Shown here piece after piece: positions 2,872 to 60,096 of a DNA stretch of 64,000 nucleotides; the first letter of the stretch is position 1, and each line of letters starts with the position of its first letter. The stretch is taken from assembly GCA_951406725.2 (NCBI GenBank), contig OX597814.1, forward strand, positions 113,398,001-113,462,000, read 5' to 3'. The DNA comes from Octopus vulgaris. Lineage: Eukaryota. The position numbers were made by a program, and so were the translations under genes. The notes under the pieces were generated by a model that did not search any database, had not been told where the DNA came from, and was given only the letters and a program-made list of their open reading frames with translations.

Positions 2872-3147
2872 TGATCAAAGCCGGGTGGATTCGTTATTTT
2901 TTCTCTTTACCTACGTTAATTAAGAGTATTGCTGTCTAGGAGATATTTTGTGGTGGAGGAATAGTATTTAACTGCTATTCCTAAATTTCGGTATGTGATG
3001 AAGCAATTTGCTGCACCCTAATTGTAATTATGCTTATAATTATTGAGTTGTTGTACAAGGTTACCGATAATGGTTCTTTTAACATACCGAACTACTTGGT
3101 AAAATTATTAATTATTAATTAATTAATTTTACCCTTTATTATTATTG
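2798..3147 (+). mobile_element. HHR-containing non-autonomous retroelement, family 1 (5' limit uncertain)
   Basis: The HHR is followed about 280 nt later by the family tail ...CATACCGAACTACTTGGT...AATTAATTAATTTTACCCT, then a microsatellite. Confidence 0.75.
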
Positions 3148-3228
3148 ATAATATATGTGTGTGTGTGTGTGTGTATGTATATAAATATAAATATGTGTAT
3201 ATATATATATATATATAAATATGTGTAT

Positions 3229-3425: not shown

Positions 3426-3463
3426 CTGTTACTCTGAGTTTCTCGTTGCCGTTCATCAGACAG
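3426..3463 (-). ncRNA. Minimal type I hammerhead ribozyme (mirror copy)
   Basis: Exact reverse complement of 3481-3518. Confidence 0.75.
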
Positions 3464-3655: not shown

Positions 3656-5509
3656 AGAGTGAGAAATTAGATATTCAATAAACATCGATTTTACACCAGT
3701 GGTCTAGCATATAAAAAACTGAAGGTTCAGTAAAATTGTATTATATACATATTAGAGGGAAACCTCTATGTATGTGTATATATATATATATGTATAAATG
3801 TAGAAGCTGGGCTTCTATACAAGTTCTATCTAAATTCCATTCATAAGGTATTAGACTAAAGCCTTCGCTGAAGACACCGTAAAGCGAGATGAAACTTAGG
3901 ACCATGCGATAAAGAGATGCGATGAGACTTTCAGAGCCACATAAACCCTGCTGGTGATCATTGTATTATAATTGATTAGCGTTATAGTTAATTACGACAA
4001 CTGATTAGGAACATTATAGTTAATTAGATCAACCGATTAACTTCATAGTTAATCAGAAAAAAAACACGGTTTTTATCTTGTTTTAAATTGTCGCCAGTTT
4101 TTTTTTAAGTAGCTGTTTTCTTCACATATCAGATTCATGTGTTCTGGTTGCAGTTACAGAAGAAGGGTTGCCAAGTAGAACACGATCAACCCGCCACCCC
4201 TCTTAGCTTTCGACAGCACCCCAAGAGGCGCCTGGCAATATAAGATAGGGGAGGGCTTGGGATAGTAAAACAAGGAATACTATCACTGACAAATTGATTC
4301 AGAGCTGCTTGAAGTTTCTTTGGGAGGTCAGCACAATGGTATTAGAAACTTATTCTCTGCCTTTATTCAACGCCTTTGCCGTCGTCCAACTCCTGGTAAC
4401 CCCTGCCGTTTATAACAAATTAAATAAATAAATAAAAAGAGACGGGACTGAGTGTTCTATGGCGATCATTTTCAGCTAAACCCCAACGGACTGTTAATGA
4501 TATACTGTGTATATATGTGTGTGTGTGTATGTATGTGTATGTGTGTATAGAATGTATGAAGGTGTGTGTCTGTGCATGTATGTATGTATGTATGTATGTA
4601 TGTATGTATGTATGTATGTATGTATGTGTGTATATGTGTTTGTGTGTATGTGCGTATGTATGTGTGAATGTGTGTATGTATGTGCGTGTGTATGTGTGTA
4701 TGTATATATGTGTTTTGTATATGCATGCATGTGTTTGTGTGTATCTATGTATGTATGCATATTTGTATGTGTGTATGTGTTTGAGTGTATACATGTATGT
4801 GTGTATGTATGTGTGTGTATGTACGTGTATGTATGTATATGTGTGTGTATATATGCATGTATGTGTGTGTATGTATGTATGTGTGTGTATGTATATATGT
4901 TTGCATATGTGTGTATTTATGTATGTATGTATAAGATTTTTTTTTAGCTTTATAAAAAAGAGAAAAATATATGTATGCATGTGCATGTGTGTGGATGTGT
5001 GTGTTTTGTCGGCTCGGTGCCATAGTAGAAGAGACTCGGGTAAGGTGTCACACAATTGGACTGAACCCAAAGCATAGGATTGGAAATCCACGCCTGCGTC
5101 TGTATAAGCATCCACCTTCTTCCTTGCTGGTCGTGTGACGACAGGGTTGCTTGCGTCAGCCAGGGTTAGAAAAGGACCTGCTTCTGAATGAAATAAATTA
5201 GCTGTTTACCCTTGGTTTCAGAGAAAGCAACAGGGTTACCTTTGAAACCAGGGATTGGCAACTTTAGTCGAAAAAATCGACACCAGTACTCATTCTTTGT
5301 AAGCCTAGTACTTATTATATCGGTCTCTTTTGCCGAACCGCTTAGTTATGGGAACGTAAACATACCAGCATCAGTTGTCAAGCGATGCTGGAGGACAAAC
5401 ACAGACACACAAATATATACACACACGTCTCAAAGACAGGTCAATTCCTCCGATATTTTGTAAATTCTTAAATATATCTCCTTCTATGTGTGTATATATA
5501 TATATATAT

Positions 5510-5556
<47 letters not shown>

Positions 5557-6169
5557 CCTAAAAAAAACATGATTTTTATTGAACTCATAATACTTTTTGT
5601 TGAGTACTTTCTTAAATAGTTTCTTGTAAACAGTTTTTAACATTTTCTTATTATTATCAAAGAATGTATAACTGTATTTTAATACTTTTCTGAAAACCAG
5701 TACTTAACACAACAAAGCTCAAACAAAGCTTTATATTTTACTTGTGACAATCTTTTTCTAAAAAAGTGAAACCGGTCAACTCAATAAATTGTGAGTGGAT
5801 TTGGTAAACGGAAACTGAAAGAAACCCGTTGTATATGTAACGAAGATGTACAGGTGTCAATGTAAAAGTGTCAATTCAATGAATTGACACCTGTATATCT
5901 TTGTTACTTATTTATATTTTGTTGACCTAACTTGGAATCTGCACTTCGGAAATACTATAGAAAGTACCTTTATATAAAAAGTACACGTCTGAATTACCAA
6001 GAGCGGATATCTTCACTTAGCTGGGTTGAGTTGTCTGCACACACGACAGTAATATTAAGAAATAGAGATAAATCAATTACTAATTATATTTATTAATTAC
6101 AAAAATAGACATAATCCCTAACAGCTGTTTCATGAGTATCTATCCATCTATCTATCTATCTATCTCTAG

Positions 6170-6353
6170 GGGTATGAGTGGCTGTGTGGTGGCGCAGAAG
6201 TGGTTGTATGGTAAGTAGTATGCTTCCCATCCATATGGTTCCGGGTTCAGTCTCACTGCGTTGCACCTTGGGCAAGTGTCTTCTATTACAGCTTCGGACC
6301 GACCACAGCCTCATGAGTGGATTTGGTAGAGGGAAACTGAACGAAGCCTGTCG

Positions 6354-6394
<41 letters not shown>

Positions 6395-6602
6395 ACACAT
6401 GTGTATCTGTTTGTCCCACCACCATCGCTTGACACCCGGTACTGGTGTATTTATGTCCCCGTAGCTTAGCGGTTCGGCAAAAAAGAGCGATAGATTGAGT
6501 AGTAGGCTTACAAAGAATAAGTCCTGGGGTTGATTTGTTCGACGAAAGGCGGTGCTACAGTATGGCCGCAGTCAAATGACAAACAGGTAAAAGAATAAAA
6601 GA
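6170..6602 (+). mobile_element. tRNA-headed CORE-like SINE, family B, with internal microsatellite
   Basis: A/B-box-like TGGCTGTGTGG and GGTTCAGTC, CCTTGGGCAAGTGTCTT core, 3' ...GGCCGCAGTCAAATGAC; more than 15 copies in the window. Confidence 0.85.
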
Positions 6603-7043
6603 ATATATATGTGTATATATTCCTCCCCACAACTACGAAACTCTACAAAATGATTAAATTCCTCACAAAGGAATTAATTTGATTTGAAAACCCCACTAGA
6701 ATGGGAGAAAGCGCTAATAATCTGAATGATATGATCTGAATGATATGATATATATATGTAAAAAATGTAATATATAAATAAATATCTATAAATATGAACC
6801 ATCTGATCTTCTGATTACCCCATTTCTTCTAATATATATATATATATATGACCAGTGAACAGTAATTGATGAAACCGGTATGACTTTGAATCTCTTTAAC
6901 AATTCATAATAATGACTTTTATTCCTCTTAATTCTACCTCAGTTCATCTAATTGTAGTTATTTATCGCTACTTTTCATAAAAAAGACTTTATTAATTTTT
7001 TTTATATTCAATATGCATTTTCGCTTTTTTATTCTTACTTTCC

Positions 7044-7081
<38 letters not shown>

Positions 7082-7086
<5 letters not shown>

Positions 7087-7957
7087 TGAGGGTAAAATTA
7101 ATTAATTAATCAATTTCACCGAGTGTTCAGTATGTAAAAGGACCATTTAAGGTGAATTCAAAATATTACATTATATAATTAGGGCTTAGTAAAATAAATT
7201 ACTTTGCCACATACTGAACTAAGTAGAAATAGCAGCCAAAAAATTTTTTTAGCCATTTCTACAACTTAAAGAAAATTTCTCTCAGATAATGTTTACTCTA
7301 GACAGCTCACGGAGGTTTTGAGGTAAATACAGAAAAATATCACAAGTACATAGATCGTTTGAGTACGTCAACGTTTCAAGATTAGCCAAATAAAATCAGC
7401 ATTTCTTTCGTCAGCTCAAAATTTCTTAATTTGGATTTGGAAACACTAAAAAGAAGGAACTTTACCTATCAACGAACTTGTCGCTTCAGATGAACCACTC
7501 CAACTAACAGTGTCAACAAGTTCAAAATGCGCAGGCGTAAATCTCTGCACTCCCCTTCCACCCACGTGGTCTATCTAGCAAACATTATATTTTAACCGCG
7601 AGAACCGAGGCAGTATGACAGAGAGAAATGAATTATAATATCAACAATTGAGGGTAAAATTAATTAATTAATCAATTTCACCGAGTGTTCAGTATGTAAA
7701 AGGACCATTTAAGGTGAATTCAAAATATTACATTATATAATTAGGGCTTAGTAAAATAAATTACTTTGCCACATACTGAACTAAGTAGAAATAGCAGCCA
7801 AAAAAATTTTTTTAGCCATTTCTACAACTTAAAGAAAATTTCTCTCAGATAATGTTTACTCTAGACAGCTCACGGAGGTTTTGAGGTAAATACAGAAAAA
7901 TATCACAAGTACATAGATCGTTTGAGTACGTCAACGTTTCAAGATTAGCCAAATAAA

Positions 7958-7959
<2 letters not shown>
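7082..7959 (-). mobile_element. Family 1 HHR element: about 1.56 tandem copies of a ~562-bp unit inside (TA)n
   Basis: 7082-7396 is repeated almost identically at 7644-7959; no significant ORF; flanked by (TA)n. Confidence 0.9.
7358..7420 (-). ncRNA. Type I hammerhead ribozyme
   Basis: UUUGAG-CUGACGA-AAGA..UCUU-GAAAC-GUUGAC-GUA-CUCAAA; perfect 6-bp stem I and 4-bp stem II base. Confidence 0.88.
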
Positions 7960-7995
<36 letters not shown>

Positions 7996-8001
7996 GTATA
8001 T

Positions 8002-8056
<55 letters not shown>

Positions 8057-8207
8057 TACGCATATATATACATATATATGTATATATACGTGTATATATA
8101 CACATACACACGCATATATGTGCAGAGAAACATAAAGATAGTGGAGGAAAGAGAGTGAGTGTGAGTGAGTGAGTGAGTGAGTGAGTGAGTGAGTGAGTGA
8201 GGGGGAA

Positions 8208-25238: not shown

Positions 25239-25296
<58 letters not shown>

Positions 25297-25299
<3 letters not shown>

Positions 25300-25483
25300 T
25301 AATACTAAGCAATTAAGGGTTTAGCAACGAATTGCCTTACCACACACCGAATTTAGGTTGCTAAACCCTTAATTGCTTAGTATTACTTAAATTTTCCTCG
25401 AATGAGGCTTTTACATGCCGAAGACTACTTGGTGTAATTGATAATTGTTCCAAATTAATTAATTTCACCCTTCATTGTTACTC
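25297..25483 (+). mobile_element. Family 1 3'-tail-only insertion with 5' inversion
   Basis: AAGTAATACTAAGCAATTAAGGGTTTAGCAAC / GTTGCTAAACCCTTAATTGCTTAGTATTACTT inverted arms, then family tail AATTAATTAATTTCACCCT; lies in (TA)n. Confidence 0.75.
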
Positions 25484-25502
25484 ATATATATATATATATA
25501 GT

Positions 25503-42904: not shown

Positions 42905-43032
42905 TATAATAATAAAGGGTAAAATTAATTAATTAATTAATAATTAATAATTTTACCAAGTAGTTCGGTATGTTAAAAGAACCATTATCGGTAAATTTAT
43001 ACAAAAATTCTATAATTATGAGTATAATTATA
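42905..43032 (-). mobile_element. Family 1 3'-tail fragment
   Basis: Close reverse-complement match to about 3030-3145. Confidence 0.8.
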
Positions 43033-58822: not shown

Positions 58823-58876
<54 letters not shown>

Positions 58877-59056
58877 TTTATAATTAGGGTTCAGCAAAGA
58901 TTTGCTTTACTACATACCGAAGTTTAGAGATAGCAGTCGAAAAACCTTAGCTATTTCTTCTACTTTAAAAAGGGACTCCCAGAAAAACCAAAATACTTGA
59001 AAACAATCTACGCAGGCAGAGAGGAAAAATAACGAAAATCAATCCATATCTGGTCA

Positions 59057-59141
59057 CCCATGTACGCGCGTTTCGGAATTAGATTGGTATAAAGAATATA
59101 GAATTATACTTTACCCAACCATTTTCGTTCATCAGCATGGG
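59057..59141 (-). ncRNA. Type I hammerhead ribozyme
   Basis: CCCAUG-CUGAUGA-a..long imperfect stem II..-GAAAC-GCGC-GUA-CAUGGG. Confidence 0.85.
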
Positions 59142-59671
59142 ATTCCAACAATATTAAATATTAAATATTAAATTCGAAGGCACTGGAAGAATTGAATATA
59201 TCTCTCCATCTAACGGTATCAGACAGATCATATTCAGTGTTAGTGCCGCCGAATTCGAAATGTGAATGAGGTTCATCACCTTCCCCTGCCCATCAGCGCA
59301 TGTCGTCAAATAAGATACTACAGAAAAAAACTGTAGTTTATTATCAGGGAGAAAAATTCCATTATCAATAATAACAAAGGGTAAAATTAATTAATTAAGA
59401 AGTAATCAATAATTTCACCAAGTAGAATTCGGCATGAAAAAAGACTATTTCACGGTAAACTTAAGAAATACTTTATAATTAGGGTTCAGCAAAGATTTGC
59501 TTTACTACATACCGAAGTTTAGATATAGCAATCAAAAAACTTAGCTATTTCTTCTACTTTAAAAAGGGACTAACACTGAATATGATCTGTCTGATACCGT
59601 TAGGTGGAGAGATATATTCAATCCTTCCAGTGCCTTCGAATTTAATATTTAATATTTAATATTGTTGGAGT

Positions 59672-59756
59672 CCTATGCTGATGAACGAAAATGGTTGGGT
59701 AAAGTATAATTCTATATTCTTTATACCGATCTAATTCCGAAACGCGCGTACATGGG
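59672..59756 (+). ncRNA. Type I hammerhead ribozyme (inverted copy)
   Basis: CCUAUG-CUGAUGA...GAAAC-GCGC-GUA-CAUGGG; the C>U change in stem I leaves a G-U pair. Confidence 0.85.
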
Positions 59757-60033
59757 TGACCAGATATGGATTGATTTTCGTTATTTTTCTTCTCTGCCTG
59801 CGTAGATTGTTTTCAAGTATTTTGGTTTTTCTGGGAGTCCCTTTTTAAAGTAGAAGAAATAGGTAAGGTTTTTCGACTGCTATTTCTAAACTTCGGTATG
59901 TAGTAAAGCAAATCTTTGCTGAACCCTAATTATAAAGTATTACTTAAGTTTACCTTGAACTGGTCTTTTTTCATGCCGAATTCTACTTGGTGAAATTATT
60001 GATTACTTCTTAATTAATTAATTTGACCCTTTG

Positions 60034-60096
<63 letters not shown>

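Follow-up and report, generated by a model that had tools for sequence, protein, structure and literature searches.

What kind of RNA molecule could have served as the template for an insertion that carries one and a half copies of a hammerhead ribozyme unit? The question is raised by a single minus-strand locus in the window, meaning the whole stretch of 64,000 nt that was analysed. The insertion is 878 nt long and consists of one 562-nt unit followed upstream by 316 nt of the next, i.e., 1.56 units, very close to the one unit plus about 315 nt of the original prediction (Table 1). Over an alignment of 316 columns, the two repeats show no substitution and differ by a single 1-nt indel in an A/T run, in agreement with the predicted difference of about one base, and a chance origin of the repeat is excluded (repeat E 1e-163). 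The 5' end of the partial unit shares a 2-nt AT microhomology with the adjoining TA tract, and the flanking (TA)n tract at 7958-8004 shows no readable target-site duplication. The 3' end indeed lies against (TA)n, but the single family tail assumed for it turned out to be one of two fixed family 3' ends, and the copy breaks off 2 nt (TG) before the usual end B, the only one of 210 anchored B sites to do so. No inverted arm is present. The copy is a lone B arm with its 5' end joined to TA, as in 31 of 76 single-arm copies. The unit contains no ORF of 120 aa, the 2-kb bin holding it has a GC content of 32%, and a tRNA scan found no tRNA.

Table 1. Features of the insertion and its flanks, in window positions.
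Feature	Position	Strand	Basis or remark
Whole insertion, single B-type arm, 1.56 units	7082..7959	-	878 nt
Complete 562-nt 3' unit (unit positions 1-562)	7082..7643	-	
5'-truncated partial unit (unit 248-562)	7644..7959	-	316-nt direct repeat
(TA)n target tract, 3' side, (AT)18	7046-7082	not assigned	
(TA)n target tract, 5' side	7958-8004	not assigned	
Site A (unit 472-474): the family's other fixed 3' end, lying in a predicted hairpin loop; not an end in this insertion	7170..7172	-	
Internal copy of site B (TGATAT), usual family 3' end; predicted loop across unit junction	7638..7643	-	
Complete type I hammerhead with a long stem II and, in helix III, the self-complementary segment ACGUUGACGU	7358..7420	-	not matched by Rfam
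3' half of second hammerhead, CUGACGA core missing; predicted cut between 7927 and 7926	7921..7959	-	
Long stem P1 (unit 426-440 with 504-518), encloses site A; covaries across subfamilies	7126..7218	-	predicted
Hairpin P3 (unit 524-553), just before end B	7091..7120	-	predicted

The complete hammerhead (7420-7358) is ordered as stem I (UUUGAG/CUCAAA), the core CUGACGA, stem II, GAAA, ACGUUGACGU and GUA, with the predicted cut after GUA between 7364 and 7363 of the minus strand. The second, upstream GUA has its last base at 7927, at a distance of 33 nt from the 5' end of the insertion. The 5' stop was rightly placed inside stem II, but the second hammerhead named in the original prediction is present only as a 3' half without CUGACGA. 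Both predicted cuts (7364/7363 and 7927/7926) lie inside the insertion, which spans the cleavage site twice, as had been claimed. With one whole and one half motif, the copy lacks the two complete motifs expected of an active copy under the rule of Li et al. (Li, Clavereau and Pollet 2026, bioRxiv 10.64898/2026.07.22.740005). Rfam detects no hammerhead in the 64,000-nt window at gathering scores and no hammerhead match in 6900-8100 even at E up to 10, and the motif folded alone does not form the active core (z -0.75). The helix III segment is computed to pair with a second copy of itself in a dimer helix of 10 bp (-12.8 kcal/mol). Dimer-dependent hammerheads have been described (Cervera and de la Pena 2014, PMC4209133), and the helix III of the 562-nt unit matches that design as given there. 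The motif is exact in 110 of the 132 family pieces that span it. Across subfamilies, stem I is fully rewritten with compensatory changes while helix III stays self-complementary, and for these reasons the ribozyme looks to be under selection. Where relatives carry an intact hammerhead upstream of their 3' module, it lies mostly about 90 nt away.

The insertion belongs to a large family in a microsatellite-rich host genome of 2.8 Gb. A search with the unit yielded 1802 candidates, and the longest arrays among the 40 of these that were scored reach 3.4-3.6 units. Pattern counts over the genome gave 506 exact B-type ends, 278 exact A-type ends, 265 exact internal unit-to-unit junctions and 523 copies of a core 23-mer of the unit, with zero matches in each reversed control. 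A looser motif, which misses the main subfamily, detects 2867 relatives. Related units are mostly about 531-595 nt long, four relatives lie inside the window, and full units of separate insertions differ by 2.1% on average. The contigs C1-C5, of which C1 carries the window and which together hold 34% of the genome, contain 96 of the 265 unit junctions; no large master array is evident from the distribution of junctions over the genome, in an assembly that can collapse arrays. Because the 265 exact copies of the same junction are dispersed over the genome, an assembly artefact is unlikely to be the source of the repeat in the insertion.

Mapping of the ends revealed a more complex picture than a single tail. 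Among 210 anchored B sites, 150 terminate, and 119 of these do so at one position, after TGATAT. Of 301 anchored A sites, 148 terminate, and for 102 of these the end is at unit 472 or 474. About 94 nt separate end A from end B, and most terminations at either run straight into TA. The 5' ends vary continuously and are spread over the whole unit. Arms longer than one unit account for 37 of 220 in length-unselected samples and for 19 of 115 under stricter selection. What had been anticipated for the genomic copies, namely 3' ends that are fixed, 5' ends that vary and lengths that exceed one unit, was thus recovered in full, with two fixed ends instead of one; the second priming site A and the two-armed insertions are features absent from the earlier interpretation. 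Arms under 100 nt are found in 34 of 56 A arms and 13 of 59 B arms of the stricter sample, and the class of very short A arms perhaps reflects stalling in the stems just upstream of A. A conserved CCCT motif is located a few bases before each priming site (window 7170-7190 and 7082-7095). Priming site A may resemble a telomerase template stretch.

Many copies are arranged head-to-head, and an A arm is paired with a B arm in 97 of the 102 two-armed copies that could be classified. The remainder are four B+B copies, one of them an alignment artefact, and one A+A copy; nine further copies have one unclassified end. Samples chosen by one end only contained 54 A+B against 4 B+B and 23 A+B against 1 A+A, while an independent choice of sites would be expected to yield about half same-type pairs. 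The junctions between arms are mostly overlaps of a few bases or short inserts, and the inverted 5'-truncated copy is accompanied by a tail of about 94 nt at one end only. Fold-back on the first cDNA was rejected as the source of the inverted arms since these often reach past each other (e.g., locus L031), and twin priming of the L1 type was rejected since the arms overlap in sequence. Two loci 7 kb apart on contig C1 (L027 and L028) show the same insertion with the same flanks twice, i.e., a local segmental duplication; the pair counts as one in insertion-level counts and as two among the 143 passages considered next.

A cleaved linear monomer is excluded as the template because arms exceed one unit and arrays extend to 3.4-3.6 units. 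This bears out the corresponding claim of the original prediction, and the predicted cut site is crossed with neither extra stops nor scars. Stops at unit 277-287, near the cut, number 4 in 143 passages against 3.46 expected from the baseline rate (4 in 84 against 3.0 without length-selected and diverged loci), and an indel at the cut site occurs in 1 of 142 spanning copies. A cluster of 5' ends at the cut site was only apparent and was gone in an at-risk test. Overlapping units within an insertion are discordant at 12 of 478 polymorphic columns, compared to 147.5 expected by random draws; the values are 6 of 282 against 86 expected for tandem units and 6 of 289 against 90 for opposite arms. 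In the scored overlap the focal insertion departs from the family majority by seven differences, all of them shared by both repeats, and two of the seven are unique to it in a set of 148 insertions. Shared singleton variants are few, with 11 in 8 of 45 insertions for tandem units and 12 in 8 of 55 for opposite arms. As discordance is far below random and the cut shows no excess of stops or scars, each insertion derives from a single haplotype that was read uninterrupted. The 76 single-arm copies have no host flank in common, their matches being to subfamily sequence only, and no long-arm junction recurs among 97 junctions, the three near-coincidences all involving very short arms. The mapped 5' ends show no pile-up marking a cleaved or transcribed start. 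Termination beyond one unit appears 1.7-2.4-fold higher (p 0.02-0.03), a tentative sign of increased termination after one lap, in analyses where edge-touching groups were dropped, identical keys merged or 24 non-aligning sites lost. Family contigs at 90-99% identity occur in four sequencing runs whose RNA status is a guess, and such contigs show neither ends, strand nor level.

Diverged relatives have in common a stretch of 170 nt that contains both A and B. The stem around A, a small hairpin and the hairpin before B are 93.9% paired over 11 representatives, with five pairs changed on both sides. None of 500 shuffles reached the pairing or covariation score and slid controls remained at or below 52%, figures that amount to support, not proof, given that the structure was derived from the same 11 related sequences on which it was scored. 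The module appears to be kept, with compensatory changes, in thousands of copies whose units come in several sizes (about 530-595 nt). Folded as a circle, the 562-nt unit has a predicted energy of -146.8 kcal/mol against -111.1 +/- 5.8 kcal/mol for 60 shuffles (z -6.2). Stem I of the ribozyme is sequestered in the predicted circle, with a pair probability of at most 0.05, and A and B are both placed in hairpin loops, the B loop forming only across the unit junction.

The DNA itself shows the two fixed ends, the pairing of A with B, the read-through, a single haplotype in each insertion and the TA targeting. We suggest that these insertions probably arose by rolling reverse transcription of a 562-nt circle, cut and religated, using a borrowed Penelope-like reverse transcriptase (RT) and endonuclease. 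Tandem copies would be transcribed, paired hammerheads would excise the monomer RNA, and ligation of the monomer would produce a circle whose predicted fold hides the ribozyme. The Penelope-type enzyme would then cut a (TA)n tract on both strands, with each target end priming on an AU-rich loop at the fixed site A or B of one RNA through 4-6 nt of TA identity. Copying would continue past the ligated junction and stop at random, and each cDNA 5' end would be joined either to the other one, creating the head-to-head arms, or to the target. The insertion at 7082..7959 would represent a B arm alone that ran for 878 nt. More tentatively, and with a confidence that stays below even, the 170-nt module might allow a dimeric Penelope-type enzyme to prime from two loops of a single RNA circle, one loop for each TA end, with both copies rolling round that same circle. 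If so, the genome would provide a countable record of rolling-circle, two-ended reverse transcription, and the tail, tandem and inverted layout of Penelope elements would be explained in a single step.

The original prediction admitted either a circular RNA or an uncleaved multimer as template. Both fit the read-through, and the DNA leans towards the circle. The multimer reading keeps the same family and a Penelope-type enzyme but takes as template an uncleaved linear multimer transcribed from young tandem copies, with no need of the hammerhead for insertion. Homogeneous arrays of up to 3.6 units are present, read-through and the absence of scars are predicted equally well, and the increased termination past one unit could reflect a finite template length. 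In vitro, hammerhead mutants of the green anole element are inserted normally by its Penelope-like protein and unprocessed RNA is the main substrate (PMC11167929), with which a multimeric template agrees. Such a template would, however, leave a compensated hammerhead in a non-coding element unexplained. Linear sources would also yield copies no longer than themselves, and arrays would be expected to shrink without a regenerating step. Source flanks or junctions should appear in the progeny, yet there are none among the 76 single arms and 97 junctions, nor is there a 5' pile-up at a cleaved or transcribed start. We therefore regard the multimer as rather unlikely and favor the religated circle, since it explains one-haplotype read-through together with the conserved ribozyme. 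The circle has its own difficulties. Rfam does not recognize the ribozyme and the lone fold lacks an active core, the tail of about 94 nt exceeds the published 30-40 nt (PMC8557442), shared singleton variants are few, and no autonomous partner with the 3' module was found. A single haplotype per insertion would also be expected from the young homogeneous arrays of 2-3.6 units that are present. The priming sites share bases with the target, unlike those described for the anole element, whose protein can dispense with the hammerhead in vitro (PMC11167929), and 8 of 9 Xenopus retrozyme dimers showed no cleavage in vitro in the report of Li et al.

The remaining explanations are less probable still. 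An enzyme that jumps, on reaching the 5' end of a cleaved monomer, to the 3' end of that molecule or of a second one would dispense with a covalent circle; stem I would hold both monomer ends together, and the ribozyme would stay under selection. Jumping should leave stops, indels or haplotype switches at unit 280/281, but the numbers found there were 4 against 3.5, 1 in 142 and 6 in 282, respectively, making it very unlikely. We consider it more improbable yet that the partial repeat was made at the DNA level after insertion, by tandem duplication or unequal exchange, or through an assembly error. A recent duplication would also suit the near-identity of the repeats, but the junction is the same fixed unit junction as at the 265 places across the genome and the start of the repeat on its 5' side is arbitrary and abuts TA, as in other copies. 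Divergence between units within insertions is 0.85% elsewhere, on a par with the 0.89% between opposite arms. The idea of a terminal-repeat retrotransposon in miniature (TRIM) or a plant-type LTR retrozyme draws on the 316-nt direct repeats, which flank a 246-nt middle, contain hammerhead sequence and could be taken for LTRs. This identity has next to no probability and is refuted by the end mapping: 5' ends are continuous rather than fixed, arms are inverted, arrays extend to 3.6 units, the ribozyme is of type I and not type III, and no target-site duplication of 4-6 bp is readable. The original prediction had named that very pattern as its refutation, and the pattern is absent.

The identity of the enzyme presumed to act on the religated circle was sought among 6136 RT + GIY-YIG candidates in the genome, of which 150 were scored. 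No autonomous element ending in the 3' module was found in 86 GIY-YIG loci, 30 loci of a second family and 300 loci of the 562-nt family, and the module hits near 6 of the 86 endonuclease loci are separate insertions or lie on the opposite strand. An intact family of 781-aa RT + GIY-YIG proteins is present (L151-L159), with many open copies, pseudo-LTRs and a CxxxxCxxC linker, and appears Neptune-like by the description in PMC8557442. Its copies have TA-joined ends and their own hammerhead core variant UUGAUAA. It was rejected as the partner since it has no similarity to the 562-nt unit. The 562-nt family itself contains no RT + GIY-YIG ORF and is not an autonomous Penelope-like element; its link to Penelope rests on layout, not homology. 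Another RT/endonuclease-type family carries, in 14 of 30 copies, the same short inverted A+B fragment (unit 346-474 and 497-562) at about 2480-2800, a few hundred bases past the stop codon (L362, L364, L367, L373-L377, L380, L382-L386). The fragment is a passenger amplified by that element.

Judged by its testable features, the family appears to be an animal non-LTR retrozyme, i.e., a non-autonomous Penelope-type element. Its units are tandem, non-coding, low in GC, equipped with a type I hammerhead, free of LTR-type ends and of fitting size. Retrozyme units were given as 150-450 bp (Cervera and de la Pena 2020, PMC7229834) and more recently as 51-972 bp (Li et al.), a range that includes the 562-nt unit and removes the earlier impression of unusual length. 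As described in these two sources, animal non-LTR retrozymes are likewise built of AT-rich tandem units that do not code for protein and each hold one type I hammerhead, have a weak self-complementary helix III and a highly paired predicted circle, and co-occur with Penelope-like elements. Circles have been reported in coral, mussel and axolotl (PMC7229834). Compared to the retrozymes in these descriptions, the present family forms dispersed short arrays, mostly of less than two units, instead of long satellites, and has two fixed priming sites as well as arms arranged head-to-head. Self-pairing is predicted to block its ribozyme in the circle, a property that PMC7229834 attributes to plant circles and not to the majority of animal ones. 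The rolling model is a published hypothesis and not new here: PMC4209133 and PMC7229834 proposed that Penelope-like enzymes copy hammerhead circles in a rolling fashion into cDNA longer than one unit.

The layout resembles that of Penelope-like elements. Endonuclease-bearing members are described with partial tandems, an inverted 5'-truncated copy, a tail of 30-40 nt at one end and a TA bias (Craig et al. 2021, PMC8557442). The family has (TA)n microsatellite targeting, partial tandems, fixed 3' ends and variable 5' truncation, and shares with these elements the inverted copy, the one-end tail and a hammerhead upstream of the 3' end (PMC8557442; PMC4209133). It differs from their descriptions in lacking an ORF, in the longer tail and in having no homologous autonomous element among the loci examined. 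The green anole Poseidon element uses, in vitro, two internal start sites downstream of its hammerhead, located in stem-loops, and both target strands are extended (Frangieh et al. 2024, PMC11167929). Two start sites downstream of the hammerhead, in stem-loops that are here predicted, and an AT-rich target are found in the octopus family as well, and its two-armed insertions match the extension of both target strands. The Poseidon start site is not homologous to the target, whereas each of the two sites here has 4-6 nt in common with (TA)n, and a fixed rule by which A and B occupy opposite ends of a single insertion is unlike Poseidon as described in that study. Chlamys elements such as MRC1 are also non-coding, Penelope-type and inserted as multiple head-to-tail copies in microsatellites (PMC8557442), as is the family here. 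According to the same source, the 3' sequence of non-autonomous Chlamys elements is also found in known autonomous families, and canonical hammerheads are absent from most Chlamys. A literature search covering the main text of largely openly accessible papers found neither the family nor the A+B pairing rule nor read-through statistics. The role of hammerheads in Penelope-like elements, and whether retrozyme circles are real insertion templates, are open in the cited papers. The family offers a short, defined RNA whose start sites are mapped and whose recognition module covaries, together with dated outcomes numbering in the hundreds, thereby making both the choice between circle and multimer and the A+B rule directly testable at the bench. 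Its value is that of a test system for rolling and two-ended priming, as the element class and the rolling model are already in print.

The window contains further elements of related kinds. A head-to-head A+B insertion of a related family with 595-nt units occupies 58873-60037, with hammerheads at 59135 (-) and 59678 (+); this family has 2356 candidates in the genome and the same two ends. Relatives with the shared 3' module are located at 2948-3149 (+), 25296-25485 and 42908-43018 (-), the second being a very short inverted A+B pair, and a hammerhead core lies at 2804 (+). Other hammerhead-like cores, several of them inverted pairs, are found at 3459 (-)/3485 (+), 17966, 29709 (-)/30311 (+), 40344, 42148, 47631/47697, 54742 and 63253, and probably come from other Penelope-type families. 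Beside the insertion lie short interspersed repeats, as an 81% inverted pair (5262-5394 / 6416-6548) and an 83% direct pair (5792-5839 / 6314-6361).
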